From Candidatus Woesearchaeota archaeon (lineage in GTDB: Archaea > Nanobdellota > Nanobdellia > Woesearchaeales > UBA11576): a stretch of 54,602 nucleotides of DNA. Numbering within the stretch: the first letter of the stretch is position 1; each line of letters begins with the position of its first letter. The notes below the pieces were generated by a model that saw only the letters and a list, made by a program, of their open reading frames with translations, was not told the origin of the DNA and searched no databases. The stretch spans positions 1-54,602 of the forward strand of contig JABMQF010000011.1 of the NCBI GenBank assembly GCA_013203345.1. Reading direction: 5' to 3'. Positions 11,826 to 41,776 of the stretch are shown here, piece by piece. The position numbers and the translations under genes are program-made.

Positions 11826-11854
11826 CAGTGATAACAAAACAAAACATTTATAAA
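11826..11854 (+). promoter_or_regulatory. second copy of the conserved promoter box
   Basis: CAGTGATAACAAAACAAAACATTTATAAA differs from 10732-10760 at a single position. It lies 51 nt upstream of ATG 11905. Confidence 0.55.
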
Positions 11855-11904
11855 CAAACACATCTTTCTCATACCACATAGTATCAAAACAGAGGTAAAC
11901 AAAA

Positions 11905-12111
11905 ATGAATTATACTACAAACAATACATACGATCAACACATCACAAGAGAGGCCCAGAAACGGTCCACAACACCAAAAAGGCACTACAACGTGCTTGGC
12001 CTGAAGGATACATCCGAAAACCCGCAAAAGCACACAAAAAGGATAGCCTTCGAGAGATTAGTAACACCAAAACCAGTAAGAGAACACCCACTCTCAAAAC
12101 CCAATAATTAA
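11905..12111 (+). CDS. small basic hypothetical protein (68 aa)
   Basis: The ORF has its own copy of the promoter box and an AGAGGT SD-like site. The composition is low-complexity and basic, so coding status is uncertain. Confidence 0.35.
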   Translation: MNYTTNNTYDQHITREAQKRSTTPKRHYNVLGLKDTSENPQKHTKRIAFERLVTPKPVREHPLSKPNN

Positions 12112-12330
12112 TCCAATTTCAATTATTTCACTCTCTTTTTCTTAAAATACAAAAACCCAAACATTTAAATAGTAGTCTTTATATACAAAACAATACCAGT
12201 ATACAAAAACATACATCGACTACATTTATCACACTAAAGCCTTTGCAAGGTCTCAGTGATTGCATAATGCTGGTAGCAGTAGGGGATGCATGTAGGAAGT
12301 GCGTTCTGCTAAAAAAAAGAGGTTGTAGCC

Positions 12331-26009: not shown

Positions 26010-26819
26010 TCAATTCAATTGTTTTCGTTTTGGTAAATAATTCTTATCAGAAACAACGATTTTTCCAATATTTTTCTCCAAGTCTTTTCTTGCTCTTCCT
26101 GCTACATTCCCTCCCTTGTTTGCTGAATCCTTACATTCAACAAAGCCCTGCGCGTCTTCCTGTTTTGTGATGTCTGTGGTGGCTTTTTCTCCAAACATTG
26201 TCAAGATAAGCTCCCAGTCAGTCATATGATCTCTCAAGTTCTGATTTCTGAGCTTCTTGAATTCCTTATATTCTCCAATTGTCTTTCCGAAGGTTGCTTT
26301 AGATATCTCATTAGTGAGAATTCCGAACTCTTTAGCAGTCTGCACATTCCTTTGCTTCCATTCATCTGTAAGATCCTGTCTAATAGCTATTCCACGAATC
26401 CGTTTATCTATCCATTCCTTGGGATACCCTTTCAGTTCATAGTATTGCTTGATTCTATCTTGTCCTAATTCAGGATTTTCAATCTCTACAATCCTCTCAT
26501 AACCTACTTGAGCAAGCCATTTCTTGAATGGTTCAGCTTTCTTTGAATGAATTGACTGGATTATCCGGAAGAGTGACTTGGTATTGGCACAGTCTGTCAA
26601 ATAAGACTTCCCATCTGATGAAGGCAACTTAAGTTGTACCCAAATTGGGGACAACTCAAGAGAGTTAAATTCACGATTCTTCACCTTACCCCAATATTGT
26701 CTCGGTGTAGGACTATCTGTCAGAACCTCAACAACATCAACAACAGAGAAATACCATTCATCATCGTGCCAGGTACGTCTGATATTCTTGTCCTGAAAGA
26801 CAACTAATCTATTTTCCAT
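26010..26819 (-). CDS. Bro-N domain / DinD-like (DNA-damage-inducible protein D family) protein
   Basis: I set the start at MENRLVVFQDKNIRRTWHDDEWYFSVVDVVEVL (Bro-N-like). The downstream ...KKWLAQVGYERI.EIENPE...RIKQYYELKGY...IRGIAIRQDLTDEW region resembles DinD-type proteins. The track ORF's extra 40 codons overlap the neighbouring gene. Confidence 0.75.
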   Translation of the reverse strand: MENRLVVFQDKNIRRTWHDDEWYFSVVDVVEVLTDSPTPRQYWGKVKNREFNSLELSPIWVQLKLPSSDGKSYLTDCANTKSLFRIIQSIHSKKAEPFKKWLAQVGYERIVEIENPELGQDRIKQYYELKGYPKEWIDKRIRGIAIRQDLTDEWKQRNVQTAKEFGILTNEISKATFGKTIGEYKEFKKLRNQNLRDHMTDWELILTMFGEKATTDITKQEDAQGFVECKDSANKGGNVAGRARKDLEKNIGKIVVSDKNYLPKRKQLN

Positions 26820-26995
26820 GAAAATATGTAAGGAATTGTCATTTATATAACCTGTGTCAATAAGTCCAGTGGATGTGAAAATTTCCGGAAGTTTCACACA
26901 CCTTGTCAAGGAGGGCCTGGCAAGCCTACAAAGATTCATTTCATGACTATTGGGGAGATGTCAACCAACTCGAAAGAGACCTATTCGCAATATAC

Positions 26996-29501: not shown

Positions 29502-31970
29502 ATGATTCTACATTCAATACGTATGAGGAACATCAGAAGCTATACTGATGAGAAACTGGTTTTCCCTGAAGGTTCTATACTTCTTGCAGGCGATATAGGC
29601 AGTGGGAAGTCTTCAATACTCCATTCTATAGAGTTTGCATTGTTTGGTGCGAGAAGGGATTCTATATCTGGCGATGCTCTTTTAAGAAAAGGTAAAGATG
29701 ATGGTGAAGTCGAGCTTAATTTTCAGGTAGAAGGTAAAGATGTTGTAATTCTACGGAAGCTTAAGCGTCGTCGCGATTCTGTGGCACAGGAAGCTGGTTT
29801 CATAATTATTGACAACAAAAAGTTAGAATGTACTCCAACAGAACTTAAGGCAAGAATATTGAACCTCCTTGGCTATCCTAAGGAGATGCTGACAAAGTCA
29901 AAGTCATTAGTCTATAGATATACAGTATACACTCCTCAAGAAGAGATGAAACACATTCTGCTTGAAGGGCATGAGCAACGCGTCGACACATTAAGAAAGG
30001 TTTTTGGTATTGACCGTTATAAGCGCGTAGCTGAAAACTCAGGATTCTATGCGCGTTCGCTAAAAGAGCGCAGAAAAGTTTTGGCAGGGGTTGCACAAGG
30101 TCTTGATGAGAAGATTACTGAGTTGAAGTCAAGACAGGTTGTATTGGATGCTGCAAAGCAACGCGTACAAGATCTTACACCAAAACTCGAATACGTAAGG
30201 TCTGTGAAAAAAGAAAAGTTATCTGAGCTTGATGTGATTGAGACAGAACGTTCACAGCTTGAAGATTCAAAAAAGAAATCTGGCATACTTGAGGCGCGGC
30301 TTATGGAGATTGTTAAGCAGCGTAGCAGAAACAATTCTGAGATGGAAGAGATTAACGCAGGTATAAAACATCTTAATGACAAGCTGGAATCTGTTGATGA
30401 AAAAGAATACCCTCTTTCAGATGCGATTGAAAAGAATATTGTTAGTAAGGAAAATGAGCTGGCAGATCTGAATGCAAAGATGAGTGCGCTTGCAGAAAGA
30501 GCTAAGCAGATTGACTCTCGCATTGCGCAAATGAATAAGGATATAGAGATAAAATCGTCAAGGGTATCTGCAGCAGAAGATAAACGTAAAGCGGTTGGTC
30601 TTATCATGGCTGAACTTTCTATTAAAGATAACGTGTCATCTGAGCTTGAGTCAATAGGAAAAAATCTGGCAGAAATATCAACATCAATAACTAAAAACTC
30701 GACTTCATTGAACTCATCAAATAATCTTAAGGCAGAGATATCAGGGCTTGATGAATGTCCTACTTGCAGACAGAAAGTAGATGCAGTTCACAAGAGCTCT
30801 ATAATTGATACTGAAGATAGGAAAATTGCAAAGCTTGTTTCAGAGATTGGATCACTTGAAAAAGATAAAGCAAGTACACAATCAAAAGTCAATGATTTGT
30901 CAGAGAAACTAAAGCAGCTTGTGATTAAAGAAAATGGACTTGCTGTTCTTAAGGTAGAACTTAACAACATTTATTCTGTTGAAAAGGAACTCAAAGAGAC
31001 AAGGCGTCTTTGTGAAGAATACACAACAGAAAGAAAAAGAATATCCAATGATTCTGCAGATAACACCCACAGCGAAAAACTTTCTATTGATATCAGAAAA
31101 GGAAAGGATTTACTCAAAGAGATAAGAAGATATGAGATACTTTTAAGTGAAAAAAAGCATAACCTGGAACTTGTTGCTGAAAAACAGAAGAGAAAAGATG
31201 AGCTTACATCTCTTCAGGACAGTTTGCGCCAGGAAGTTGGACTGATAAATAATGAGAAGCGTTTGCTAAGTGAGAAGATGTTAGGACTGTCTTCTGTTGC
31301 TGAACGGTTTGCGCTTGGCAAAGAGGTTTTTGAGCGCATCTTGTCTGAAGAAAAGGAATTAGAAGTTGAGATTGGAAAGGCAGGCAAGGAGGCAGAAGCT
31401 CTTGCAAGCATTGTGAGTTCTATTGAAAAGGATGTCAAGTCAAAAGAGGATGCTCTAAGAGAGCACGGCAGACTAGGTATTCTGCTTGAATGGATAGAGA
31501 AAATTTTCATGCGTTTGATGGGTGTTATGGAACGTCAGGTGCTTGCCAGGGTTCATGGACAGTTCAGCGAACTTTTTTCGTCATGGTTTAGAATTATGAT
31601 AGAAGATGAGGTAATTTCTGTACGGCTTGATGATTCTTTCTATCCTGTTGTTTCTCAGAATGGACATGAGACAAATCTTGAATCGCTCAGTGGTGGTGAG
31701 AAGACATCTATTGCTCTTGCGTACAGGCTTGCGCTTAATAGAGTAATAAATGACATGATAAGCAGTATCCGAACAAGGAGCCTTCTGATACTTGATGAGC
31801 CTACTGATGGTTTCTCTTCTGATCAGCTTGATCGCGTACGAAATGTTCTTGATGAGCTTAACACAAGACAGACAATAATTGTGAGTCATGAATCCAAGAT
31901 AGAAAGCTTTGTAGACCACATAATTCACATAAACAAAGATGAACACATAAGCAGAGTTATAAGAAATTGA
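29502..31970 (+). CDS. rad50: Rad50-type SMC-like DNA double-strand-break repair ATPase
   Basis: Walker A GDIGSGKSS, long coiled coil, zinc hook CPTC (LDECPTCRQKV), signature LSGGEKTSIALAYRLAL, Walker B LLILDEPTDG, and H-loop IIVSHE. Confidence 0.92.
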   Translation: MILHSIRMRNIRSYTDEKLVFPEGSILLAGDIGSGKSSILHSIEFALFGARRDSISGDALLRKGKDDGEVELNFQVEGKDVVILRKLKRRRDSVAQEAGFIIIDNKKLECTPTELKARILNLLGYPKEMLTKSKSLVYRYTVYTPQEEMKHILLEGHEQRVDTLRKVFGIDRYKRVAENSGFYARSLKERRKVLAGVAQGLDEKITELKSRQVVLDAAKQRVQDLTPKLEYVRSVKKEKLSELDVIETERSQLEDSKKKSGILEARLMEIVKQRSRNNSEMEEINAGIKHLNDKLESVDEKEYPLSDAIEKNIVSKENELADLNAKMSALAERAKQIDSRIAQMNKDIEIKSSRVSAAEDKRKAVGLIMAELSIKDNVSSELESIGKNLAEISTSITKNSTSLNSSNNLKAEISGLDECPTCRQKVDAVHKSSIIDTEDRKIAKLVSEIGSLEKDKASTQSKVNDLSEKLKQLVIKENGLAVLKVELNNIYSVEKELKETRRLCEEYTTERKRISNDSADNTHSEKLSIDIRKGKDLLKEIRRYEILLSEKKHNLELVAEKQKRKDELTSLQDSLRQEVGLINNEKRLLSEKMLGLSSVAERFALGKEVFERILSEEKELEVEIGKAGKEAEALASIVSSIEKDVKSKEDALREHGRLGILLEWIEKIFMRLMGVMERQVLARVHGQFSELFSSWFRIMIEDEVISVRLDDSFYPVVSQNGHETNLESLSGGEKTSIALAYRLALNRVINDMISSIRTRSLLILDEPTDGFSSDQLDRVRNVLDELNTRQTIIVSHESKIESFVDHIIHINKDEHISRVIRN

Positions 31971-31983
31971 TAAATCAACAAGC

Positions 31984-32253
31984 AAGTCAATACTAATTCT
32001 ACCACAAACCACAACAACAACACAGCACACAACACAAACCACAACCACTCACACCCTGCCAATACCCGCACAACCAACAATTACAGCAACACCCCTGCCT
32101 GTGCTACTGCTGCCACCTAGCGAGCCTAAACCTCTAACTTAAAAAAACCTAACGCAGTTGGGCGAACACATCAAAAACCACAGCAGTGCGAGCGTGGCAG
32201 CAGTTATTGCACAGGCAGGGAAAAACTGCTAAGTCAGAAAATCTGAAGAATCC
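31984..32253 (-). repeat. GC-rich dispersed element, copy B (inverted relative to copy A)
   Basis: The reverse complement aligns with 7402-7678. Its arms CCCTGCCTGTGC...ACTGCTGCCAC and GTGGCAGCAGT...GCACAGGCAGGG pair with each other and differ from copy A by compensatory changes. A CA-rich tail lies at 31999-32056. Confidence 0.85.
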
Positions 32254-32306
32254 ATGCCAGAAAAACTAAAAAATTCAACTTCCCAACTTCTTTACAGTAT
32301 TCTTGT

Positions 32307-32693
32307 TTGATTGATTTTGTCGAAAGGTTTAAATATGCAATTACGCAAGAACCGTTTATAGAGGTGCTATTCTTGAAACGCCCACAAAAAAAACCAACAA
32401 TAATCAAAATTCCTGAAACACCCCATCCACATGAGGTGCCGTATCATAAACTTACAAATCTTAGTAGGAAATACATTAATTGGAAAAAAATAATGATAGC
32501 AGTCATATTCATACTTCTTGTTTTCATGGTTCTGAACGTAATTGTCTCAAGTCCATTCATAACAGGTTACGCTGTTTCAGGTGATAACAGCCTTAATCAG
32601 GAAAGGTTCATGGGCACTGCTTCACTTCTTGCAGTCATATTTGCATTCTTCACACTGTTCATACTTATTGTGAACAAAAAGGTGAAGAGGTAA
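32307..32693 (+). CDS. hypothetical membrane protein (start uncertain)
   Basis: The ORF is TTG-initiated and the first in-frame ATG lies only at the TM region (MIAVIFILLVF). It has two TM segments. Confidence 0.4.
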   Translation: MIDFVERFKYAITQEPFIEVLFLKRPQKKPTIIKIPETPHPHEVPYHKLTNLSRKYINWKKIMIAVIFILLVFMVLNVIVSSPFITGYAVSGDNSLNQERFMGTASLLAVIFAFFTLFILIVNKKVKR

Positions 32694-32712
32694 TTCTCAA
32701 AAAAATAAAAGA

Positions 32713-32964
32713 TTATTTGGCCAGCTTGTTGTATACATACACAAATGCGTACACTATTACAAAGCCAATTATTGCAGCTTCAATCATCCCTGTAATGATT
32801 CCGACAATACTGAGTGAGAAGAACATGTGCCATTGCTTCATCATATCAACAGCGCCAGTGTAGATACCCAGTTTACCAAAAATTCCTAACAGCAACATCA
32901 ATGCAGCTGAGACAATCGCTGCAGCAAGACCTGCAGGCAAACATTTGCATTTCTCTTTAGCCAT
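32713..32964 (-). CDS. small membrane protein (83 aa, 2-3 TM)
   Basis: The start MAKEKCKC has AGAGGTG 6 nt upstream. It has hydrophobic helices. Confidence 0.65.
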   Translation of the reverse strand: MAKEKCKCLPAGLAAAIVSAALMLLLGIFGKLGIYTGAVDMMKQWHMFFSLSIVGIITGMIEAAIIGFVIVYAFVYVYNKLAK

Positions 32965-33076
32965 ATTTTCACCTCTAAATTCATTCAACAACTTTTTTCA
33001 ATCTGAATTGCTATCTATTTAAGATCAACATAATCAATAATTCCCATAGCATCAACAGATTTCTTGTAGCCATAAT

Positions 33077-33292
33077 TCACTTTTTCTTATGTGGTTTGAC
33101 AAGCCAGTTATGTGTTAGCCAGAATATGACTGAAAACACTAATGCTCCAATCATAAAGTATAACAATCCTAAAATACCCATTCCAAACCATCCTGCTCCA
33201 CCCATCATACCCCAATCACCCATCATACCATAGTCTGCAAGAACAGCAGGTACCAACAGGAGAAACATAGACAACAATATTGCTTTTTTCAT
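33077..33292 (-). CDS. small exported/membrane protein with Met/Gly-rich motif (71 aa)
   Basis: The start MKKAILL has GAGGTG 6 nt upstream. It has a signal peptide, then DYGMMGDWGMMGGAGWFGMG, then a TM segment. Confidence 0.65.
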   Translation of the reverse strand: MKKAILLSMFLLLVPAVLADYGMMGDWGMMGGAGWFGMGILGLLYFMIGALVFSVIFWLTHNWLVKPHKKK

Positions 33293-33398
33293 AAGGAACA
33301 CCTCGTAGGTCTTATATGGTTCAAAAGTATTTAAAAGTATTTAAAAAGTACAATTAGATGATAAGTTAGGCTATCACAGCCCCACTCATCAGCGATGT

Positions 33399-33656
33399 CT
33401 AGCCACGCCAGCCCATCATACCGCTCATACTACTAAGACCATAGCTATTTGTGCATCCTTCATGTAGTGGATCCGTCTGCTCAGAATCCAAACTTTCAGT
33501 CATGGAATCATGTATTTCATCCATACCCTCAAGACTCAACAAATGCCCAAACATATTCCACCTCGAATTACTCGACTCCAAATCACCTTCATAGGAATAT
33601 ACTGCAACAGCCAAAAGCAAAAAAGCGGCAAACACAACTAAAATATTCTTTCTCAT
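33399..33656 (-). CDS. small exported protein, His/Met-containing, ends in MSGMMGWRG (85 aa)
   Basis: The start is MRKNILVVFAAFLLLAVAV (signal peptide), with GGTGA upstream. It lies 5 nt after the stop of the preceding gene. Confidence 0.6.
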   Translation of the reverse strand: MRKNILVVFAAFLLLAVAVYSYEGDLESSNSRWNMFGHLLSLEGMDEIHDSMTESLDSEQTDPLHEGCTNSYGLSSMSGMMGWRG

Positions 33657-33661
33657 CTCAA

Positions 33662-33895
33662 TCACCTTCTGTTACGAGAAACATAATTGTCCATCAATGT
33701 CTGGTAAAGCTCAGCATTATCTCCTGCCGCAAACCTATAATATTTCTTCATACATTCAGGGTTGTCATGGACCAAAGAGGTAGGAGATTCCTTAGGATAG
33801 CACGAAACAAAATCATCCAAACTCATACTCACAAAAAATCCATTTTCATAAACTTCTACCTCCTCACAACACATGTAGTGATTAACTTCTACCAT
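33662..33895 (-). CDS. small Cys-containing cytoplasmic protein (77 aa)
   Basis: I set the start at the third Met (MVEVNHYMCCEE) because GAGGTG lies 6 nt upstream, the same spacing as in the neighbouring genes. Confidence 0.55.
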   Translation of the reverse strand: MVEVNHYMCCEEVEVYENGFFVSMSLDDFVSCYPKESPTSLVHDNPECMKKYYRFAAGDNAELYQTLMDNYVSRNRR

Positions 33896-34272
33896 CTGCA
33901 TCACCTCATCAAAACACCATTTTAACTATTTCCTACCAAATTACTCCTAATTCTTATCTGCCCCGTTTCATCGACTTCCCAATGGTAAATATCTCCCACT
34001 AGGAAATTTTCCCAAATTAGATTATCGCTGTTCACTTACTAACCCCTCTGAAATGATTTTCTGCAAAAACATGTCAGGTAATACAATACCAAAACGGTCC
34101 CAGTACAGAACCCTTTGTTCTTTCATCAACAATTCTTTTGCTACGTCCATTGCGACTCACCTCGTGAATATAAGAATAGTAAGATCCACGTCACTTAAAT
34201 AAAATATTAAAGAAAAATCAGAACAAACTTGCATAAAGCTTAAAAAGGTCAATATACTATTTTTAAAGCAAG

Positions 34273-34935
34273 ATGGGATACCTATTCGCAACACCGAGCT
34301 GGTTCTTTGGCATAGATATTGCATTAGAACTAGCTTTCGCAGTAATTACATTAGCAGTGGGTCTGTACTCATACAAAGTCTATAAATTATCAGGTAAAAA
34401 CCAGGTGAAAACATTCAGCATAGCATTCAGTCTGATATCTGTTTCTTATCTTATACAATCAATCACAAACTTTCTTATCCTATCAAAACTGAATGAAAAT
34501 GTATGTAGAGCATTCAATATAGCCAGCATCAATACGCTTAACAACATAGGATTTTATGCATACATGCTCTTTTTCACAATAGGACTGTTGACCTTGACTC
34601 ACACAACATTAAGAAGTAAAAATGAGAGAATTTACCCTCTCATGTTTGCAGTGACGTTTCTAGCAATCCTATTCAGCACAAACCAATTATACATATTTTA
34701 TCTGCTTGCATCAACACTCCTTACCTACATGGTATGGCATTACTTCCAAAACTACATTAAGAATAAACAGACAAAGACTTTAATTGTGTTAGTTGCATTT
34801 GTATTCCTGCTGTTTGGAAGACTGCATTTCCTTGTAAGTGTAAATCACAGCCTGTTCTACATGATAGGTCACTTCCTTGAATTAGTCGCATACATCCTAA
34901 TCCTTATTAATCTGATACTAGTCATACGAAAATGA
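34273..34935 (+). CDS. integral membrane protein (about 6 TM)
   Basis: 220-aa hydrophobic ORF whose stop overlaps the next start (ATGA). Confidence 0.7.
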   Translation: MGYLFATPSWFFGIDIALELAFAVITLAVGLYSYKVYKLSGKNQVKTFSIAFSLISVSYLIQSITNFLILSKLNENVCRAFNIASINTLNNIGFYAYMLFFTIGLLTLTHTTLRSKNERIYPLMFAVTFLAILFSTNQLYIFYLLASTLLTYMVWHYFQNYIKNKQTKTLIVLVAFVFLLFGRLHFLVSVNHSLFYMIGHFLELVAYILILINLILVIRK

Positions 34936-35210
34936 ACCAAAAAAGAAATCGACTTACAGTAATTCATGACATACTAAGAGTCATCCAGAAAAAGAACAGT
35001 AAGATAAAGCCGACACATATCATCTACAAGGCAAATCTCTCTCACGCAATGCTCGAAGAATACATGAAAGAGATGATAGAGAAAGGATTTGTAGAAGAGC
35101 AAAAACAGAAAAAAGGAAAGACATACTCGCTGACCGAAAAAGGATTTAATTTTCTAAAAGAATACAAAACAATAACTGCATTTCTGGAATCATACGGATT
35201 AGGAGACTAA
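34932..35210 (+). CDS. winged-helix DNA-binding protein (archaeal wHTH type)
   Basis: The segment ...IYKANLSHAMLEEYMKEMIEKGFVEE....GKTYSLTEKGFNFL.. is a typical small archaeal wHTH layout. Confidence 0.65.
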   Translation: MNQKRNRLTVIHDILRVIQKKNSKIKPTHIIYKANLSHAMLEEYMKEMIEKGFVEEQKQKKGKTYSLTEKGFNFLKEYKTITAFLESYGLGD

Positions 35211-35234
35211 CATCAAAAGACAATAAAAATAGGG
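35207..35234. repeat. left copy of a 28-nt direct repeat (26/28) matching the tRNA-Pro 3' end/trailer
   Basis: CTAACATCAAAAGACAATAAAAATAGGG compared with 39741-39768 CTGACATCAAAAGACAATAAAAATGGGG. It overlaps the stop codon of the wHTH gene. Confidence 0.85.
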
Positions 35235-35336
35235 TGTTTGCCCTGTTGTACTAAATTTTGTTTGTTTTCTTCATGCGTCTACACTTTCCTCCATATATAT
35301 TAATCACCAATTTTAGAGAATTTTAGTTCATGTTTT

Positions 35337-36317
35337 TTATTTTAGTATTCCATCCAGGAACAGATCTATGAATAATACTTCTTTCATAACCCAGTAGTCT
35401 TGTTTTTCTATTATATCTGAATAATTCTTTCTAAAGACTTTTGATATTTTACCTATTTCGTTTGGTGTTTTGAATGCGCATATGAATAAAAATGAGTTTA
35501 TGTTTATATCGTAACTTGCATAGACTATGTTGTTGTTTTCTCTTATTACATTTCTTAGTCTTCTATATTTTTCTTTTGATATGTTACTTAGTTTTATTTT
35601 GAATAAATACTCTGTATATCCTAGTTTTGACAGGTTTATTGATGTTGAATATCCTGCTATTATCCCTTTCTTCTCTAAGTTTTTTATTCTGTATCTTACT
35701 GTATCAAATGTTAGTTTTAGTTTTCTTGCTATCTCCATGTAACTTAGCGATGCATCTTTTGTTAGTATTTTTAGTATTTGTTTGTCTTTCTCTGTTAATT
35801 GTACTTCTCCTTCAGTCCATTTTATTGCAGGAGGCCGTTCTAGTTTTAGTTCTTGGTATATGTCTTGTATCAAGTCTTCTGCTTTGAGTATTTCCGTGGA
35901 TGATGATACTTCATAACTATTCAGTGTTTCTCCAAAGTGTTCTGTTATTTCTTTTATGATCTCTATCAAATGTAAATAGTTTTTTGCCGAGAATTCTACC
36001 ATTAGATCCCATTGTCCTAACATGCTTTCTGCCCATAGAGCATAATCGTGTTCTTTGAAGTATTTTATTATCTCTTTTTTATCATATATGTCTTCATTAA
36101 ATCTAAAAAGCATGATGAATGGTATATGTCCTAAGAGCGAGTAGTTTAATTTGGGTGTGAAGTTTATTATTATCCCTCTTTTTTTCAGTTTTTGTATTCT
36201 GTAACCAACAGAGCTTTCACTCACACCTATTTTTTTCCCTAACTGCTTGTAGCTTTCTCTAGAATTACGTGATAAATAATACAATAATCTCCTATCTTTC
36301 TTATCAATTTCTAACAT
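35337..36317 (-). CDS. Lrp/AsnC-family transcriptional regulator, tandem-duplicated (two HTH + two ligand-domain modules)
   Basis: IDKKDRRLLYYLSRNSRESYKQLGKKIGVSESSVGYRIQKLKKRGII and LTEKDKQILKILTKDASLSYMEIARKLKLTFDTVRYRIKNLEKKGII are each followed by an ..N.S.LGY.. segment. Confidence 0.85.
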   Translation of the reverse strand: MLEIDKKDRRLLYYLSRNSRESYKQLGKKIGVSESSVGYRIQKLKKRGIIINFTPKLNYSLLGHIPFIMLFRFNEDIYDKKEIIKYFKEHDYALWAESMLGQWDLMVEFSAKNYLHLIEIIKEITEHFGETLNSYEVSSSTEILKAEDLIQDIYQELKLERPPAIKWTEGEVQLTEKDKQILKILTKDASLSYMEIARKLKLTFDTVRYRIKNLEKKGIIAGYSTSINLSKLGYTEYLFKIKLSNISKEKYRRLRNVIRENNNIVYASYDININSFLFICAFKTPNEIGKISKVFRKNYSDIIEKQDYWVMKEVLFIDLFLDGILK

Positions 36318-36492
36318 ATCAAGGATAATATGTAATTATTTATAAGTTTTTCCATAAATCAGCTAAAAACTGGCAAAAAGTGTTATATAATAGTATCGTT
36401 TACCCTTATTAAGGAGTAAAAACCACAAAAACAGGGGGAAAGACTTCCAACTTGAATTGATCAAAAAATAATTAAAAAACGGAGGAAATAAA

Positions 36493-37245
36493 ATGTACAC
36501 CCAAACAAATAATTATTCTACAATTTGCGACCGTATCAAAGAAGGTCCGCCTGTCCACACAAGATTTATTAAGCCTTATGAAGCAAGATTGTATACCTCT
36601 GCTGAACAAATCAGACAAGATGGCAGAGTTATCATGACTGGTAAACAGTATGTGCAAGTTCTTCTTGGTGAATTGGGAAATCCTGCAGATATGGAATTAA
36701 TGCGCGATAGCTACGTCACTCTTCCAATAATAGCTCTACCAGATCCTGATGAAAAGAGTCTGGCATTAAGACTTGTCTCTAATCACCAACTGATTGACGA
36801 ACTTACATGGAAAACAAAATTAGATGAAGGGATGATTCCGGTGTCTCAGGAACTCTATGACGGCGCGCTTGGTTTAGATTGTTTTGAAATTGATCATGAT
36901 TCGGCTGTCAAACTAACAAAAGACGAGTATGATCTTCCTGATTTAAGAAAGAAAATATTCACTCACATTGTTGGAGGAGAAGAACAATTGGTAGAAAAGT
37001 GGAGACGTGCTATAATAGACTATACAAAGATTGGTGATCCCGATATTATGCCTTTCATCCCATATCCTTACTCAAAGTATAAATTCCACCACGAAGGAAT
37101 GGACATATCATCAATATTAAAAGGCGGACGATATGTAGGTGTATCTAATCTCGCAATCAGATCTCCAGCCAAAACTATCTTCCCAATAGATTTCGAGTAT
37201 AGTCAGTTTTTTGGGCTAGTGCCTAATGTGCTTGATTTTGAATAA
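36493..37245 (+). CDS. hypothetical protein (250 aa)
   Basis: GGAGG lies 8 nt upstream of the ATG. No motif recognised. Confidence 0.65.
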   Translation: MYTQTNNYSTICDRIKEGPPVHTRFIKPYEARLYTSAEQIRQDGRVIMTGKQYVQVLLGELGNPADMELMRDSYVTLPIIALPDPDEKSLALRLVSNHQLIDELTWKTKLDEGMIPVSQELYDGALGLDCFEIDHDSAVKLTKDEYDLPDLRKKIFTHIVGGEEQLVEKWRRAIIDYTKIGDPDIMPFIPYPYSKYKFHHEGMDISSILKGGRYVGVSNLAIRSPAKTIFPIDFEYSQFFGLVPNVLDFE

Positions 37246-37272
37246 TTTGTCAAGAACAAATCTAAGCGAGTC

Positions 37273-37446
37273 TTACCTAGCGTACGCTGATCTAATCAGA
37301 TCAAACTGTTCTGGAGCAAATCCTTCAATAATATTTTCATTTATTTGAAGCTCAGAATAATCTTCGCAAATAAGATTATTACCTTTGTCATTACCTTGGT
37401 ATTTAACCAACTTATTCGTATCAATGAAGACCACTATTTTTTTCAT
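37273..37446 (-). CDS. small ORF (57 aa), possible truncated PIN-like N-terminus
   Basis: This ORF is below the track's size cut-off; I translated it by hand as MKKIVVFIDTNKLVKYQGNDKGNNLICEDYSELQINENIIEGFAPEQFDLIRSAYAR*. The IVVFIDTN start resembles the first PIN strand. Confidence 0.3.
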   Translation of the reverse strand: MKKIVVFIDTNKLVKYQGNDKGNNLICEDYSELQINENIIEGFAPEQFDLIRSAYAR

Positions 37447-37489
37447 GTTTCCTCGTCTACTTTTTCAAGTATCGGTTGTTGTCAAAAAA

Positions 37490-37588
37490 TGTGGAGCGAG
37501 GGAATCGAACCCCCTCATCGGCCGTGGAAAATCCAGCTGTTATCATTGCTCTAATACAACATTAGGTGGAATGCGCCATGCACTCCAC
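37490..37588 (-). tRNA. tRNA-like gene, isotype unresolved (multi-intron tRNA or degenerate tRNA)
   Basis: The minus strand ends in ...GGGGG-TTCGATT-CCCTC-GCTCCAC-A plus a T-run, which is a canonical T-arm, acceptor 3' strand and discriminator. The matching 5' strand GTGGAGT lies at 37582-37588. The total of 99 nt implies about 25 extra nt. I could not fold a canonical D arm or anticodon arm by eye. Confidence 0.45.
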
Positions 37589-37720
37589 GCCGATGCTCCC
37601 ACCAAACGCTGCAATTCCTAATTTAACATATGACGCCATGTTCATCACCTCCATATACAAGACAATATAGGCTAATGTCGCATAGGCCACAACAACCGCA
37701 GTGAATTTTAACTCCACAGT

Positions 37721-38335
37721 TTATCGGAATTCATCAATAATTTCAATTATTTCATAGGCTAAGCTTAATGGTGTTGAGTCCCTGCTTATCAGTTCAGTAC
37801 CTGCATCTTCATGGACCTTTTTTATTCTTTTCGCATGTGTCTTGGCATCTTCAATTTTTTCTTTTGTTTTTTCATAGAGTTCGGTTTCAGTCTTTGTTTG
37901 AAGGCCAAGTTTTTCTGTGACAAGATCACAGACTTGTCTTTGGTCATATGCGGGTGAATTATAGTATCCATCATGACAAAGAATCCAAAATTCAAAGCAA
38001 GGATTTGAATAGATAATTTTGATTTCTCCCATCTTACTTCGAATCGTTTCGAAAACATCTGCTGTGTTATTATCATCCCTGTCAAACACACAGACAATTA
38101 TATCTCTCTCACTATCGAAGGAGTCCTTGTTGATCTTGAATTCACCGTTCTGGAACCTTAATGCTTTATCAAGTATCTGATCAGCTCTTGTCACTCCAGC
38201 TTCAAGTGGAACGATTTTCAATCTAAGTTTCTCAGTAACGCGAAGATTCTCAAAGTACCTCTTTTCTGTCTTCCCTTCACAGGAGATCCATAGTTTACTT
38301 GTCTTTTTTAAAGTTGTAGGACGTCTTCTAACCAT
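37721..38335 (-). CDS. RloB-like protein (AbiLii-like, predicted Toprim-type nuclease partner)
   Basis: Motifs LWISCEGKTEKRYFENL, IVCVFDRDD and IIYSNPCFEFWILCH are the hallmark RloB motifs. It overlaps the upstream ATPase gene by 8 nt. Confidence 0.85.
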   Translation of the reverse strand: MVRRRPTTLKKTSKLWISCEGKTEKRYFENLRVTEKLRLKIVPLEAGVTRADQILDKALRFQNGEFKINKDSFDSERDIIVCVFDRDDNNTADVFETIRSKMGEIKIIYSNPCFEFWILCHDGYYNSPAYDQRQVCDLVTEKLGLQTKTETELYEKTKEKIEDAKTHAKRIKKVHEDAGTELISRDSTPLSLAYEIIEIIDEFR

Positions 38336-39590
38336 CTTCTGCCTCGAAAAATGTCTCGTCGATGAATGGAAGACCCCCTACACGACCATTCAGATAAGCA
38401 TTTTCAAAACTAAGTGTCTCTCTCAGATCAAAATTTAGCAAAGAGTTTAATTCTGTCCACTTATTAGGTGCTTTTGAACAAATATATACCTGATCTCGTC
38501 TAAATAAGTCCTTATTCTTTAGTAGGGTAGTATCATGTGTGGTAATAACTAGTTGTCCATTTTTTTCATTATATTTGCTGTGAAATAACTTAATCAAAAA
38601 CTCTGTGATGTTTGGGTGTAAATTAAGTTCAAATTCGTCTATGAAAAGAGTTTTGCCAGTCTTTAATATATCAAATATTAGGCCAAGCAGGGCTATAGTT
38701 TTTTGAGTTCCATGAGACTCTTCATCTATGTCTAACCTGACTTCTTTTTTGTTATTATCATAATGAACAAATTTAACGTCATAGAATTCTTTCTCAGTTT
38801 CCTTTAGAGGATTAATTATAGCACCCTCATTTCCAAATTTTAATTCTAAACCGTTGACTTTACGTAACTCTTTTTTAACTTCCAAATCTATTATTCCACC
38901 AAAGTCTGTTTTCTTAAGAATTTTCAGGACTTGTGCCTTAATTTCTTTATCTTCATGTATTTGATGCATGGTCAAATTTGTCTGATTAGGATTTATCACA
39001 ATATCATTTACTATGAACTCATATACACTCCTGGTTTTTTCAAATCCTAGTTGTGTGGCTCTTGACAAATACAAGACGTTATCAGTCATCTGTTTCTCAA
39101 TCAGTTTCTGTTGAGGTTTATCATCTGTGAACTTGAACTCCTTAGAGTTAGTTCTACTGAAAATCAAGGCCTCCCTACCTTTTGGCCAGAAGTACAAGTA
39201 CTCATCAACGATTTTTTCATCATTACATGAAAAACCATACTTATATTTTACATCATCTTTAATGAAAATAATTTCAAATTTGCTAGGTTTATTGATATAT
39301 GCACTATCCAGTTTGAATGGCTGTCTAGTGGGCATCATCTTATTGAATTTTTGATCAACATTGAAATTATGTGAGTTTTTCACTAAGAACCACATGAAAA
39401 AAACTGAGTGGATTAGATTTGACTTGCCTGAGGCATTTGCACCATATACTGCAACAGATCTGAGTAGATTCTCCTTGTCTGGTAAAGCTATTAGATTCTG
39501 AGCTAGCTTCTTGCTAGATCCTGCATCTAAGCTTAATACTGCTGGTTCCTTTATTGAAAGGAAGTTTTGAATTGTAATTTCGACTATCAT
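38328..39590 (-). CDS. AAA_21/ABC-type ATPase (RloA/AbiLi-like)
   Basis: N-terminal IQNFLSIKE..., Walker A YGANASGKSN, Walker B LFIDEFELNLHP, and the VITTHDT H-loop region. Confidence 0.85.
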   Translation of the reverse strand: MIVEITIQNFLSIKEPAVLSLDAGSSKKLAQNLIALPDKENLLRSVAVYGANASGKSNLIHSVFFMWFLVKNSHNFNVDQKFNKMMPTRQPFKLDSAYINKPSKFEIIFIKDDVKYKYGFSCNDEKIVDEYLYFWPKGREALIFSRTNSKEFKFTDDKPQQKLIEKQMTDNVLYLSRATQLGFEKTRSVYEFIVNDIVINPNQTNLTMHQIHEDKEIKAQVLKILKKTDFGGIIDLEVKKELRKVNGLELKFGNEGAIINPLKETEKEFYDVKFVHYDNNKKEVRLDIDEESHGTQKTIALLGLIFDILKTGKTLFIDEFELNLHPNITEFLIKLFHSKYNEKNGQLVITTHDTTLLKNKDLFRRDQVYICSKAPNKWTELNSLLNFDLRETLSFENAYLNGRVGGLPFIDETFFEAEDG

Positions 39591-39740
39591 TTTAGCATAA
39601 TTAAGAAGTGCTCATTTATATATTTATCGCTTATTTTTGCAAATTGTTTGCGGAAATAAGGCATAAATCATCAAAATAAGGGTTTTATTTATAAATGCCT
39701 GCAAAACACGTAAATACTGCCCAAAAACACACAACTCATT

Positions 39741-39768
39741 CTGACATCAAAAGACAATAAAAATGGGG
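39741..39768. repeat. right copy of the 28-nt direct repeat (tRNA-Pro discriminator/acceptor end plus trailer)
   Basis: See 35207-35234. Its last 5 nt are the 3' end of tRNA-Pro. Confidence 0.85.
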
Positions 39769-39867
39769 CCTCGAGGACTTTCGAGCAAAGCATAATCGCC
39801 ATAGCAATTCGAACCCCGGTTAGAAGGCCCCCAGCCTCCAGTGATAGCCAAACTACACTAAGGCCCC
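39764..39867 (-). tRNA. tRNA-Pro (anticodon GGG) with a 30-nt intron in the T-loop (about 39777-39806)
   Basis: The minus strand reads GGGGCCT-TA-GTGT-AGTTTGGCTA-TCAC-T-GGAGG-CTGGGGG-CCTTC-TAAC-CGGGG-TTCGAAT[30 nt]CCTCG-AGGCCCC-A. The acceptor stem is perfect. The intron's 3' end (CTCGAAAGT) mimics the T-loop, as in tRNA-Tyr. Confidence 0.85.
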
Positions 39868-39963
39868 ACGTTATATTTCATGTTATTTTATTACGTTATT
39901 TTCTTACATTATTTTATTACGTTATTTTCTTATATTATTTCCATTGCCAATTGCGTATCAAAC
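39859..39963. repeat. direct repeat R1 (about 105 nt) containing five tandem 13-nt iterons
   Basis: It starts in the tRNA-Pro 5' end (CTAAGGCCCC). The 13-mers at 39882-39946 are GTTATTTTATTAC, GTTATTTTCTTAC, ATTATTTTATTAC, GTTATTTTCTTAT and ATTATTTCCATTG. It ends in CCAATTGCGTATCAAAC. Confidence 0.85.
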
Positions 39964-40035
39964 AACAAACCCTGAGGGTTTGTGTGCCAAAGCATTTTTG
40001 ATGCTTTGAGCATGAGCATAACCATTTGCTACCTG

Positions 40036-40154
40036 CTAAGGCCACATATTATATCTCATGTTATCTTCTCACATTACTTTCTCAAATTATTTTCTTAAGT
40101 TATTTTCTCACATTATTTTCTCACGTTGTATTCATTGTCAATTGTATATAAAAC
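40036..40154. repeat. direct repeat R2 (about 119 nt) containing six tandem 13-nt iterons
   Basis: It starts with CTAAGGCCAC. The 13-mers at 40060-40137 are GTTATCTTCTCAC, ATTACTTTCTCAA, ATTATTTTCTTAA, GTTATTTTCTCAC, ATTATTTTCTCAC and GTTGTATTCATTG. It ends in TCAATTGTATATAAAAC. It is offset 177 nt from R1. Confidence 0.85.
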
Positions 40155-40303
40155 TTTTCAGATGTTTTTCTTCAAACCGATTTGCTTGCTTTACCTATGA
40201 TTTCCACTCTTTACATAGTTGTTTCAATAATTTTCTAAGCGAAATATTTATATACTCACCCCACTGTTGGATAGCTATTTTGCTGCTTGCAAGAGGTGCC
40301 AAT

Positions 40304-41776
40304 ATGAAAAAAACATTTGTGATACTTTTAGGATTATTTCTGATATTTTCCACAATAGCATATGCTGATGTAATTACACCAAAGGATGTTTTGATCAGAG
40401 TAGATGCTATTAATAACAAGATAACTGACCTGGACAAGGGTTATGCAGAATTCAATATCTCAATAACCAACAACAAAGACAGTACAGATAGCTTTAAGAT
40501 GCTTTATCTTGATCCTCCTAATTGGTATGCACAAATTCTGCCAGGCACTTCTGCCAGAACTGTGAAACTTGCACCCGGTGATACTGGCAGCATCCATATG
40601 TTTGTGAGACCTGATAAGCTTAAGCGTGGCACCTATGGCATCAGAGCTCTTGTGCAAGCAATTGGTACAAATTATGTTTATGATGACGCTGTTCTTCGTA
40701 TTGTGGTTGGTGTTGATGAAGATGAAATACCTCCAGAGCCTGATTTGGATGTTGATGTCTCTGTTCCTGCGCAGATGGATCCTACCGGGACGTATACTGT
40801 GCTTGTGAACATTGCAAACAATAACAAAAGGCTTCTTGAGAATGTTAAGGTCAGTATATCAAGCAGCATAATTGCAGATTCAACAAATGTTACAATACAA
40901 CCAGAGGATACAAAGAGCATATCTTTTGCAGTGCTTCTTATGGATAATATAAAGCCTCAAAAGGATAGTCTAGCTATAACTGTTGATTATGAGGGTGAAG
41001 TGTTCCATGATTCAGTTCACAACTTTGATGTTGTTGAGTATCTTCCTCCTTTCCAGACAGATATTGAAGTAGAAAAGAAATGGCTTAAACAAATCAGAAC
41101 AATTCGTATTACAAATACTGGTAACGCTTTAAAGTCAGATTCTATGAGGTTAGAAACTTCTCTTAAGGAGCGGTTCTTCTCAAATTCCGATCCCAAATTC
41201 AGAATTGTTGAACAGGATAAAAAGAGCTTTTTAGTTTGGGATGCTTCTTTAGAACCTGATGAGTCTATGGATATAACATTGACAACAAGCTATAGATGGC
41301 TTGTTCTGGTTGCTATCTTGATCATTGTTCTTCTTGCGCTTAGATTCGCAATTCCAAGTCCTCTTTTGGTTAAGAAGAAATTGAGGTCTGTCCATAAGTC
41401 TCATGGAGGTATTGCTGATTTCTCTGTGATTATTTACCTTCAGAACAGAAGTAAGACTGCTCTTACCAACATAAGGGTTGTTGAGCGTGTGACTAAGATG
41501 GTTGAGCTAAAGCATGACTCTTTTGCAGGCTCACTTCACCCTGCTAAGATGCATAAGCACGATAATGAGGGTACTCTTCTGGAATATAGATTCGGAGAGC
41601 TTGCACCTGGTGATGAGAGAATTATTAAGTATAAAGCGCACTCTAAGCTGCACATCTTCGGCGATATTACCATCAAACCTACAGTAGTAGAGTTTATTTC
41701 TGGTAAAGGCATTAAAAGAAAGTCCCGCTCTAGGGAACTGTCAATATCCACAGAAGAGACAAAAGAAAAAAAGTAA
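40304..41776 (+). CDS. exported protein with signal peptide, one TM and a basic cytoplasmic C-terminal domain
   Basis: I trimmed it to ATG 40304 (MKKTFVILLGLFLIFSTIAYA), with TTTATATA about 50 nt upstream. The upstream part of the track ORF runs through repeat R2. A TM segment WLVLVAILIIVLLAL lies mid-protein. Confidence 0.8.
   Translation: MKKTFVILLGLFLIFSTIAYADVITPKDVLIRVDAINNKITDLDKGYAEFNISITNNKDSTDSFKMLYLDPPNWYAQILPGTSARTVKLAPGDTGSIHMFVRPDKLKRGTYGIRALVQAIGTNYVYDDAVLRIVVGVDEDEIPPEPDLDVDVSVPAQMDPTGTYTVLVNIANNNKRLLENVKVSISSSIIADSTNVTIQPEDTKSISFAVLLMDNIKPQKDSLAITVDYEGEVFHDSVHNFDVVEYLPPFQTDIEVEKKWLKQIRTIRITNTGNALKSDSMRLETSLKERFFSNSDPKFRIVEQDKKSFLVWDASLEPDESMDITLTTSYRWLVLVAILIIVLLALRFAIPSPLLVKKKLRSVHKSHGGIADFSVIIYLQNRSKTALTNIRVVERVTKMVELKHDSFAGSLHPAKMHKHDNEGTLLEYRFGELAPGDERIIKYKAHSKLHIFGDITIKPTVVEFISGKGIKRKSRSRELSISTEETKEKK

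Follow-up and report, generated by a model that had tools for sequence, protein, structure and literature searches.

Two 28-nt direct repeats on the plus strand, CTAACATCAAAAGACAATAAAAATAGGG (35207–35234) and CTGACATCAAAAGACAATAAAAATGGGG (39741–39768), bound a 4.5-kb islet in the window, the 54.6-kb stretch of DNA that was analysed as a whole, and form the distal and the tRNA-proximal att junction of the islet, respectively. As the first-pass annotation had reported, the two copies are identical at 26 of 28 positions; they share a perfect 21-nt core. With regard to the possibility, raised by that annotation itself, that the 28-mer is a common trailer, a search of the window at up to three mismatches returned only this pair, none of 100 shuffles gave a match (0/100), the 21-mer core did not occur elsewhere in the window, and the tRNA-Pro(GGG) trailers of eight other Woesearchaeota were unrelated to that of the window.

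The integration target, a tRNA-Pro(GGG) gene, lies at 39764–39867 on the minus strand and carries a 30-nt non-canonical intron (39777–39806) just after the T-loop. Because of this intron the gene was overlooked by ARAGORN and Rfam, neither of which detected any tRNA in the raw sequence of the whole window; a canonical tRNA-Pro(GGG) cloverleaf was obtained with ARAGORN only once the 30 nt were taken out. In L074, the orthologous gene is interrupted by an intron at the identical position. The intron-free cloverleaf therefore defines the extent of the right repeat on the acceptor end and trailer: it consists of acceptor bases 69–72 (39765–39768), the discriminator (39764) and 23 nt of trailer, which agrees with the earlier assignment of this copy to the end of tRNA-Pro. 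The left repeat, again as annotated, overlaps the TAA stop codon (35208–35210) of a wHTH gene (Pfam HTH_45, E 5e-20). It is cut off at this stop codon and lacks the CAGAATGAGTT part, an arm segment found in all other junctions except the distal one of L073.

The GC content of the islet is 33.9%, compared to 39.1% for the rest of the window, and no 4.5-kb segment from outside the locus reaches a value this low (mean 39.3, sd 1.7, minimum 35.8), confirming that the interval is AT-rich relative to its flanks. The composition is uneven, ranging from 29.7% in the Lrp-type gene, the most AT-rich one, to 38.2% in the gene for a 250-aa protein. The former (35337–36317, minus strand) encodes a tandem AsnC/Lrp-type regulator, as had been proposed, which comprises two wHTH plus ligand-domain units and in which Pfam recognised HTH_AsnC-type and HTH_24 domains in two stretches each. 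The 250-aa protein (36493–37245, plus strand) had been described as an orphan, and indeed a search for a close homologue found none; its 13 remote homologues are all devoid of Pfam domains. Its AlphaFold model (pLDDT 82) has a predicted C-type-lectin fold, with 5ioo_A as the top Foldseek match (E 3.6e-5, TM 0.55/0.63), and the predicted fold resembles that of the Nanoarchaeota DGR variable protein AvpA. No VR/TR repeat, template repeat or reverse transcriptase is present as a DGR part for this protein.

Two further features lie between this gene and the defence genes. A 57-aa ORF (37273–37446, minus strand) had been read as a PIN-like remnant, but this was not supported: it had no Pfam or PADLOC match from which a function could be assigned, and its similarity to the PIN protein of L078 was not significant. 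A structured tRNA-like RNA (37490–37612, minus strand) contains an acceptor-type stem of 7 bp with a single bulge, a canonical T-arm (GGGGG-TTCGATT-CCCTC), which alone scored in Rfam, and a long ATCGGC/GCCGAT helix around ~70 nt; its folding energy is low (MFE -49.7 kcal/mol, z -2.9). ARAGORN gave a poor Gly(TCC) only with an arbitrary 57-nt deletion. The 'aberrant tRNA-like gene' of the first-pass annotation stands as a structured RNA whose T-arm and acceptor stem are of tRNA type, but it is not recognisable as a tRNA.

The ATPase and RloB pair turned out to be an AbiL system. AbiLi (38328–39590, minus strand) is an AAA_21/AAA_15 ATPase (PADLOC AbiLi, E 1.2e-80; Pfam AAA_21, E 9e-35) and AbiLii (37721–38335, minus strand) is RloB-like (Pfam RloB, E 5e-29; PADLOC AbiLii, E 2e-20). 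As in the AbiL abortive-infection system defined in PADLOC, the genes for the AAA_21-type ATPase and the RloB-like protein are adjacent and overlap (here by 8 nt), and both components are strong matches. The system is archaeal here, with its closest homologues in Nanoarchaeota/Woesearchaeota, Aenigmarchaeota and methanogens, and is a putative anti-virus defence system. The AbiLi and AbiLii proteins are 74% and 76% identical, respectively, to those of the Nanoarchaeota contig L078 (74% DNA identity over 2 kb).

In L078 the same AbiL pair resides inside a 13-kb element located 3′ of tRNA-Pro(CGG). This element contains an intact tyrosine integrase that is 84% identical to that of L073; the upstream partner ORF of the integrase and a NikA-like gene are 78% and 76% identical between the two. 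The catalytic R, HxxR, H and Y are conserved in both integrases, which are short (257–260 aa, catalytic domain only), are accompanied by a separate, overlapping upstream ORF of 140–159 aa, and share less than 30% identity with every plasmid or phage integrase included in the search. The cargo is a copper-type ATPase/metal cluster in L073 and a multi-system defence set in L078. In the window, neither the islet nor any other part of the 54.6 kb contains an integrase or integrase fragment, as the first-pass annotation had stated, and the integrase with a matching att that it had suggested looking for was found in the sibling L078, beside a homologous trailer. SSV-type (type I) integration into archaeal tRNA genes splits the integrase gene, leaving Int(N) and Int(C) at the borders. 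The islet shares the archaeal tRNA-gene integration, but no integrase fragment lies beside either repeat, and the sibling integrases are intact inside their elements.

Judged by alignment, both ends of the islet match the ends of the integrase-bearing L073/L078 elements. The P arm, beside the proximal att (39700–39740, plus strand; motif AACTCATTCTG, in tRNA sense CAGAATGAGTT), aligns with its tRNA-proximal counterparts in the L074 and L078 elements. The trailer in the right repeat is homologous to the trailers beside tRNA-Pro in L074 and L078; that at the L078 tRNA-Pro(CGG), CCCCATTTTTATTGCTTTTCGATGCCAGAATGA, matches CCCCATTTTTATTGTCTTTTGATGTCAGAATGA of the window (blastn E 1e-5). The distal P′ arm (35232–35262, minus strand; in tRNA sense GTACAACAGGGCAAACACCCT) forms a T-arm-like hairpin and aligns with the integrase-proximal arms of L078 (14658–14677) and L073 (3849–3868), whose shared pattern ACAGGGnnAACAyCCCyATT recurs directly inside the left repeat of the window: CATAACAGGG[C/G]GAACATCCCCATT aligns there with GTACAACAGGGCAAACACCCTATT. 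This distal-arm similarity by itself was not significant in a window-wide or L073-wide search, and it is convincing only because of its predicted position, the tied-best window match to the L078 distal arm falling exactly at the P′ arm. The direct repeats of L073 and L078 themselves are short and patchy, with 7–10 nt perfect. From these comparisons, the elements appear to belong to one family (three members available) of tyrosine-recombinase elements that insert at tRNA-Pro 3′ ends in Woesearchaeota/Nanoarchaeota.

In the closest relative found (L073/L074), 186 nt of spacer separate the wHTH gene (79% aa identity to that of the window) from the trailer and tRNA-Pro(GGG), and there is no islet, which answers the suggested search for an empty site. 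In a blastn comparison, the homology of L074 to the window ended at 35214 and restarted at 39730, so that 186 nt stand in place of the 4.5 kb of the window.

The wHTH gene was considered as a chromosomal flank of the islet and rejected, as the gene order of L073 identifies it as cargo belonging to an older member of this element family. The remnant of this sibling element (32713–35210, about 32.3–35.2 kb) consists of TM92, TM74, p88, p80, TM220 and wHTH, a metal-homeostasis-type cluster that lacks its integrase and P-type ATPase. These genes have counterparts in L073 (55–79% aa identity), where they lie between tRNA-Pro and a Cu-type P-type ATPase, the NikA-like gene and the integrase; TM220–wHTH homologues elsewhere occur in other contexts. 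This makes the islet a single module within a larger island that is both composite and inverted. As defined by the ancestral order conserved in relatives, the true chromosomal flanks are Rad50 (29502–31970, plus strand) and p492, a 492-aa secreted/membrane protein (40298–41776, plus strand): the order Rad50, tRNA-Pro(GGG) on the plus strand, p492 is found in eight Woesearchaeota loci, and in 18 relatives tblastn located p492 homologues immediately after Rad50 or tRNA-Pro. By this comparison, the tRNA-plus-island block is inverted relative to Rad50 and p492 on either side of it. A search of the inversion breakpoints revealed neither inverted repeats nor tRNA copies, and one for a third att copy at the outer end of the older element found none. 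Integrase-linked chromosomal inversions have been described for the pTN3 integrase in Thermococcales (PMC5495485); here too a tRNA and integrated elements form a block inverted relative to conserved flanks, but unlike the pTN3 case the breakpoints lack such repeats, and a role of an integrase in the inversion of the window is pure speculation.

The best explanation, to which we assign a probability of about three in four, is that 35235–39740 represents an integrated mobile element whose own integrase was either lost or never present. The comparison with relatives supports the proposal of an integrase-less islet, bounded by attL and attR at a tRNA gene, that is decayed or mobilised in trans. 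The window belongs to a Woesearchaeota/Nanoarchaeota (DPANN) archaeon, and the 4.5-kb stretch is a decayed mobile element carrying AbiL, an integrase-less, CIME-like member of the tRNA-Pro-targeting family within a composite island. In the mechanism we propose, the site on the element would combine a hairpin arm resembling a T-arm with a CCCCA-TTTTT core and a CAGAATGAGTT arm. The family integrase would recombine this site with the 3′-terminal bases and the trailer of tRNA-Pro, keeping the tRNA intact and duplicating the core at the far end of the insert. A second element would then have entered the tRNA-proximal att of a resident L073-like element. The AbiL islet lies between the tRNA and the older L073-like element, as expected from such an entry, and tandem accretion would account for the unusually long, clean repeat. 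The left copy would represent the core plus the first 23 nt of the homologous arm of the older element, later truncated at the wHTH stop. In the window the core directly adjoins the wHTH stop, while L074 has a ~190-nt arm between wHTH and the core, so the tandem model needs an extra deletion. Later deletions would have removed both integrase modules and the outermost att, and the whole tRNA-plus-island block would also have been inverted between Rad50 and p492. Since both att junctions survive, an integrase provided in trans by a sibling might in principle still excise the islet as a CIME-like element.

Alternatively, a single L073-like element may have been remodelled internally, with loss of its integrase/ATPase segment, the AbiL–Lrp segment and a copy of the att core and distal arm having been moved or recombined into the space that separates wHTH from the tRNA-proximal arm, homologous recombination with an incoming relative being one example of how; the left repeat would then be an internal relic and not a junction of successive integrations. 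Positions 39730–39740 (weakly to ~39643) are homologous to the L074 spacer, which is contiguous with wHTH there, no arm lies between the core and the wHTH stop, an outer att copy is absent, and module exchange by homologous recombination among related integrated archaeal MGEs is known (PMC8371274). However, the islet has proximal and distal arms in the order and orientation of a complete element, its GC content differs from that of the wHTH block (33.9% versus 36.9%), and AbiL in L078 accompanies the same integrase family without the metal cluster, making this remodelling unlikely. We consider it similarly improbable that the islet is an active satellite, excised, transferred and re-integrated by the integrase of a sibling in the same genome or of an incomer. 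The well-preserved junctions (26/28, perfect 21-nt core), the presence of both arms, the intact integrases in two other genomes and the precedent of CIMEs (PMC5704250) are in favour of this idea. However, the 54.6-kb window contains no integrase, the left junction is truncated and lacks the CAGAATGAGTT arm segment, and the islet is present in all five same-species contigs (5/5), among which, as in scans of public collections with the 21-mer, neither a circular junction nor an empty site was seen; the five contigs showed no excision polymorphism. Far less probable, and already disfavoured, is that the islet belongs to the ancestral chromosome and was deleted in the L073/L074 lineage, its repeat being a duplicated terminator or trailer with no recombination role: islet gain versus loss is not strictly polarised because the relative is distant (Rad50 50% aa), the repeat is AT-rich, oligo-T and terminator-like and follows both the tRNA and the Lrp gene on the minus strand, and the species shows no polymorphism, but recombination between the repeats predicts wHTH–core–tRNA where L074 has wHTH–186-nt spacer–core–tRNA, distant relatives have tRNA-Pro directly between Rad50 and p492 without such genes, in another genome integrase-bearing elements at a different tRNA-Pro isoacceptor are bordered by this same trailer and distal arm, the islet stands out in composition, and the 21-mer core is confined to the two repeats in the window.

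CIMEs and tandem accretion at tRNA/att sites have been described, for example for ICESt1/ICESt3-related islands of Streptococcus thermophilus (PMC5704250). Like CIMEs, the integrase-less islet keeps attL and attR without integration or transfer genes, forms a tandem with a decayed relative at the 3′ end of a common target gene, and shares att specificity with integrase-bearing siblings. CIMEs are bacterial, whereas the islet host is archaeal; the islet family has no known conjugation module, with only a NikA-like gene in the siblings, and the available sequence contains no helper integrase, mobilisation of the islet being putative. In archaeal MGEs, integrase loss after integration and tandem integration are documented, and elements with a pNOB8-type (type II, non-partitioned) tyrosine integrase occupy tRNA genes, with integrase-less or tandem ones in Methanococcales and Thaumarchaeota (PMC8371274). 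The family described here likewise targets the 3′ end of a tRNA gene, which is included in the direct repeat, and the sibling integrase gene is likewise intact at one element end. Unlike the pNOB8-type, the att/tRNA overlap is 4–5 nt only, with the repeat mostly trailer, and the short sibling integrases have the separate overlapping ORF. The terms 'DPANN', 'Woesearchaeota' and 'Nanoarchaeota' do not appear in the main text of that review (PMC8371274). The islet would now be a fixed passenger that provides AbiL defence, the tandem Lrp regulator, the lectin-fold protein and the tRNA-like RNA, and it represents an ordinary sort of genomic island in a poorly studied lineage.

Comparison of the 28-mers at 35207–35234 and 39741–39768, described in the first-pass annotation as the borders of an AT-rich islet, confirmed that they are identical at 26 of 28 positions, with a perfect 21-nt core. 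The pair was unique in the window at three mismatches or fewer, and none of 100 dinucleotide shuffles produced a match. These direct repeats bound the islet (35235–39740), and one of them includes the 3′ end of a tRNA: since tRNA-Pro(GGG) reads 39764–39867 on the minus strand, the right copy consists of acceptor bases 69–72, the discriminator A and a 23-nt trailer, in agreement with its original assignment to the tRNA end, and the islet begins at this trailer. The left copy overlaps the TAA stop codon of a 92-aa HTH_45 winged-helix (wHTH) gene, also as described. The GC content of the islet was 33.9% compared to 39.1% for the rest of the window and was below that of every 4.5-kb window outside the locus, bearing out the claim that the interval is more AT-rich than its surroundings.

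Neither ARAGORN nor Rfam reported a tRNA across the whole 54.6-kb window. A 30-nt non-canonical intron (39777–39806) directly follows the T-loop of tRNA-Pro(GGG), and its removal yielded a canonical cloverleaf in ARAGORN. The orthologous tRNA-Pro(GGG) (~1720–1850) on the JGI contig L074 contains two introns, one of 19 nt at the equivalent position and one of 42 nt in the D-loop. In addition, the first 10 nt of the window tRNA together with ~90 nt of its upstream region are tandemly duplicated at 82% identity (39858–39960 and 40036–40140), and T-rich repeats with a 13-nt period make up each copy. A 5′ tRNA-like fragment (GUGGCCUUAG...) starts with the second copy and is followed by two hairpins (39955–40045, z −2.0). 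This feature may be an inversion scar or a small RNA gene. Split-tRNA pairing with the 5′ fragment at 40036–40045 (GUGGCCU) was rejected, as this fragment is complemented neither by the tRNA-like RNA of the islet (acceptor GCUCCAC) nor by the tRNA-Pro 3′ end.

Both the tandem AsnC/Lrp regulator and the ATPase–RloB pair annotated in the islet were found, and the latter was identified as the AbiL defence system. PADLOC detected AbiLi (E 1.2e-80) and AbiLii (E 1.7e-20), the AbiLii/RloB Pfam family was matched at E 5e-29, and the AbiLi AAA ATPase and RloB-like AbiLii genes are neighbours that overlap by 8 nt. The 250-aa ORF (orf250; 36493–37245, plus strand), annotated as an orphan, is indeed without a close homologue; it has 13 remote homologues, none with Pfam domains. 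Its structural model was confident (pLDDT 82), and the top and sole significant Foldseek match was 5ioo_A (AvpA, a Nanoarchaeota diversity-generating retroelement [DGR] variable protein; E 3.6e-5, TM 0.55/0.63), from which orf250 is predicted to adopt a C-type-lectin fold. Sequence-level support for this fold was not found. A DGR was rejected, as no segment of orf250 recurs in the window as a template repeat and a reverse transcriptase domain was absent from all ORFs scanned. For the 57-aa ORF (orf57), described as a PIN-like remnant, derivation from PIN was not demonstrable, and that annotation was rejected. The aberrant tRNA-like gene held up as a structured RNA (37490–37612, minus strand) with a canonical T-arm and a 7-bp acceptor-type stem and without a D-arm, but it is not a recognisable tRNA. 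It forms a long ATCGGC/GCCGAT helix around ~70 nt (MFE −49.7 kcal/mol, z −2.9), and an anticodon-loop-like UUUCCAC appears only after removal of 57 nt. Possible identities of this RNA are a tRNA-Gly with several introns, a tRNA mimic and a relic of an att site.

The TM220–wHTH gene pair on the left of the islet has many Woesearchaeal homologues, the closest of which (76–79% aa identity) are on two near-identical JGI contigs, L073 and L074. The search for an empty site was successful here: in both contigs wHTH is followed by a 186-nt spacer, the trailer and then an intron-containing tRNA-Pro(GGG) on the opposite strand, with no islet. Blastn homology between L074 and the window extends up to 35214, 4 nt past the wHTH stop, and starts again from 39730, 11 nt before the right repeat. 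The islet is thus missing at the homologous site of a related genome, a distant relative whose wHTH is 79% identical at the amino acid level. The two sister-sample contigs differ by a precise 27-nt indel (CTCATTCTGGCAGCGAAAGTCATAAAA; L073 ~11125, L074 1696–1722) covering exactly the trailer segment that corresponds to the window repeat, which may be an att-site polymorphism.

With Rad50 on the plus strand, the order in L073 is Rad50, a 149-aa gene, tRNA-Pro(+), an element, TM128′, p492, p217 and p348. The element comprises the spacer, wHTH, TM220, p80, p88, TM74, TM92, a 36-aa ORF and a YHS/HMA P-type ATPase, followed by a NikA-like gene, a 70-aa ORF, a PF00589 integrase and a 159-aa partner ORF. 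This gene order implies that in L073 the wHTH cluster is cargo of an integrase-bearing element lying 3′ of the same tRNA, in the ancestral orientation. The window retains TM128, TM92, TM74, p88, p80, TM220 and wHTH and is without the ATPase-to-integrase segment. On this comparison, the earlier reading of wHTH as a flank is corrected, wHTH being element cargo itself. The TM220–wHTH pair and small Met-rich membrane proteins recur beside HMA/P-type ATPase, DsbD, DUF411 and thioredoxin genes (window 32713–35210; L073 6003–10938), suggesting that the cluster is a copper or metal-homeostasis cassette moving between contexts.

The best AbiLi homologue (74% aa identity) was found on the Nanoarchaeota contig L078 (GCA_042576705.1), and the AbiLi–AbiLii DNA of the window and L078 is 74% identical over 2 kb; AbiL is the sole islet module common to a sibling element. 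The integrases of L078 and L073 are 84% identical, their overlapping upstream partner ORFs 78% and their NikA-like genes 76%, and both integrases retain the catalytic R, HxxR, H and Y. This family integrase is short (257–260 aa, catalytic domain only; L073 3899–5127, L078 13391–14571) and in both contigs is preceded, with a 25-nt overlap, by a 140–159-aa ORF, so that either an arrangement of two ORFs or a frameshift has been conserved. No relatives of the two integrases were found in IMG/VR, and comparison with plasmids and phages returned only generic tyrosine recombinases at <30% identity. The L078 element (1463–14710) is a ~13-kb defence island at tRNA-Pro(CGG) that carries an N6/N4 methyltransferase, a DEAD/SNF2 helicase, AbiL, an 8xMP protein and two ThsB-type TIR proteins, and an RHH–PIN pair lies just outside it. 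AbiL homologues at ~61% identity on other contigs (L082–L085) were rejected as the same element, as their contexts differ, adjoining either a DDE transposase or T4SS-like genes and a tandem Lrp; the latter is unrelated to the islet Lrp (21% identity). On the DPANN-like contig L085 (1309–11838), the AbiL pair (61% aa identity) adjoins this unrelated tandem Lrp and T4SS-like genes (TrbC-type pilin, TrbL, TraC/VirB4-like), suggesting that conjugative-type elements also carry AbiL in these archaea.

The L078 element starts at tRNA-Pro(CGG) with the trailer CCCCATTTTTATTGCTTTTCGATGCCAGAATGAAT. The window trailer CCCCATTTTTATTGTCTTTTGATGTCAGAATGAGT matches it (blastn E 1e-5), and the same trailer is present in L074. 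Trailers at eight other tRNA-Pro(GGG) genes are unrelated, and the 28-mer has only two matches in the window, contrary to what a common trailer would give; the trailer therefore belongs to the element family and not to tRNA-Pro genes generally. At the other end, the sequence directly next to the partner ORF of the L078 integrase, ~13 kb downstream, is CATAACAGGGCGAACATCCCCATTTTTTAATTCTTTAGAATGAGTTATG; that beside the integrase in L073 is CATAACAGGGGGAACATCCCCATTC, and GTACAACAGGGCAAACACCCTATTTTTATTG... lies immediately inside the left repeat of the window. The distal-arm similarity alone was not significant in a whole-window search, the tied-best match being at exactly the predicted position. 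Thus the proximal trailer and arm match L078 and L074, and the distal arm matches L078 and L073, significantly only as a position-specific match. The shared proximal and distal arms imply that each end of the islet has its counterpart at one end of the integrase-bearing elements, with order and orientation as they should be. Within L073, a clean tRNA/trailer direct repeat was not found beyond CCCCATT.

The reported lack of an integrase extends from the islet to the window: no ORF scanned across it contained PF00589 or another recombinase domain, and tblastn of the window with the L073 integrase and partner ORF gave no match. The proposed search for an integrase with a matching att site, unsuccessful in the window, succeeded in the sibling elements of L073 and L078, which have homologous ends. 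The islet (35235–39740) has neither a NikA-like nor a transfer gene and does not carry the integrase of its own expected of a tRNA-targeting tyrosine-recombinase element. An SSV-type (type I) element was also rejected: in such elements the integrase is partitioned into Int(N) and Int(C) at the two borders, whereas wHTH, Lrp and AbiLi border the repeats here, with no integrase fragments. The islet keeps both attL and attR junctions, the left one truncated on its outer side, as expected of a cis-mobilizable element (CIME). The neighbouring block at 32.7–35.2 kb, the candidate tandem partner, is orthologous to the L073 element cargo but is without an integrase, a proximal arm and an outer att.

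Rad50 (29502–31970) places the window in the Woesearchaeota/Nanoarchaeota (DPANN). A scan of GTDB-representative genomes with Rad50 reached a best identity of 51%, supplying a synteny frame but no close relative. A homologue of p492 (492 aa; 40298–41776) lies just downstream of Rad50 in 18 of the relatives retrieved, and in 8 of the 18 tRNA-Pro(GGG) is located between them on the same strand as both, indicating the ancestral order Rad50(+)–tRNA-Pro(+)–p492(+). In the window, ~7.8 kb separate Rad50 from tRNA-Pro, and the tRNA points the opposite way. Against L073 and eight more distant relatives, the block 31971–40297 (TM128 through wHTH, the islet and tRNA-Pro) is inverted with respect to Rad50 and p492. 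Inverted repeats were looked for at the breakpoints and not found; one breakpoint, between Rad50 and TM128, has a 330-nt low-complexity spacer rich in C and A (ACAACAACACAGCACACAACAC...; 31971–32306). A 309-aa protein encoded 8 kb upstream of the island (26010–26939, minus strand) has a Bro-N domain (E 1e-10), which is typically found in viruses and mobile elements.

Taken together, these comparisons support a reading in which a larger island at tRNA-Pro(GGG), composite and inverted, contains the islet as one of its modules. The central proposal of the first-pass annotation, an integrase-less element next to a tRNA with attL and attR, is supported by the islet-free relative, by the shared AbiL, trailer and arms, and by the sibling integrases. 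The family integrase would recombine an element site, probably made up of a T-arm-like hairpin arm, a CCCCA-TTTTT core and a CAGAATGAGTT arm, with the tRNA-Pro end and trailer. The AbiL element may have entered the tRNA-proximal att of a resident L073-like element; such tandem accretion at att has been described for bacterial CIME/ICE arrays (PMC5704250) and would explain why the window repeat, at 28 nt, is much longer than the 7–10-nt perfect repeats of L073 and L078. The left repeat copy would then combine the core with the start of the homologous arm of the older element, cut short afterwards at the wHTH stop. Deletions would have removed both integrase modules and the outer att, and the tRNA-plus-island block would then have been inverted. 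No third att copy was found at the outer end of the older element (31960–32320 and the TM128/TM92 gap), where scores fell in the range given by shuffled sequences. Archaeal mobile elements are documented both to lose their integrase and to integrate in tandem (PMC8371274). In L074 wHTH is adjoined by a ~190-nt arm; the left junction of the window lacks this arm, whose homologue lies on the other side of the islet, as could also result if a single element had been remodelled via recombination with a sibling, a history that we consider improbable. An ancestral islet whose repeat is merely a terminator is disfavoured, because deletion between the repeats would not produce the arrangement found in L074 and mobile elements with the same ends occur at a different tRNA-Pro isoacceptor.

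The islet is most probably a decayed element that has become fixed as a passenger. It was carried by each of the five same-species contigs, which come from three samples, and every contig retrieved by exact matches to the wHTH, RloB and Lrp proteins had this arrangement; exact matching of AbiLi and p217, with the starts used, returned no record. Scanning IMG/VR and the JGI metagenome collection with the 21-mer core for empty sites or attP gave eight hits, all with unrelated flanks, which are chance matches of an AT-rich word. The islet may still be mobilisable in trans. It is rather unlikely that the islet is a functional integrase-less satellite of a family of DPANN integrative elements, whose short two-ORF tyrosine recombinase (targeting the last bases of tRNA-Pro and the trailer) would capture it and move it in trans and would also have assembled the composite island by accretion and inverted the tRNA-plus-island block. 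If so, a working CIME/accretion system would operate in ultra-small symbiotic archaea and shuffle their modules for defence and metal resistance.

A tRNA-linked genomic island with a lost integrase, defence cargo and a sibling in tandem is of a well-known kind; the lineage and the element family are new. DPANN mobile elements are poorly charted, and the main text of a review of archaeal tyrosine recombinases contains none of the terms ‘DPANN’, ‘Woesearchaeota’ and ‘Nanoarchaeota’ (PMC8371274). Because non-canonical introns made the target tRNA invisible to ARAGORN and Rfam, automated island finders based on tRNA calls would miss such islands in these lineages. The window locus, L073 and L078 define a small tRNA-Pro-targeting element family with a recognisable att architecture, an unusual short integrase with a separate upstream partner ORF, and interchangeable cargo (AbiL, Thoeris-like TIR proteins, methyltransferase and helicase, or a copper-ATPase cluster). 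This family supplies concrete att and integrase sequences for experiments and illustrates the movement of defence genes among genome-reduced symbionts.
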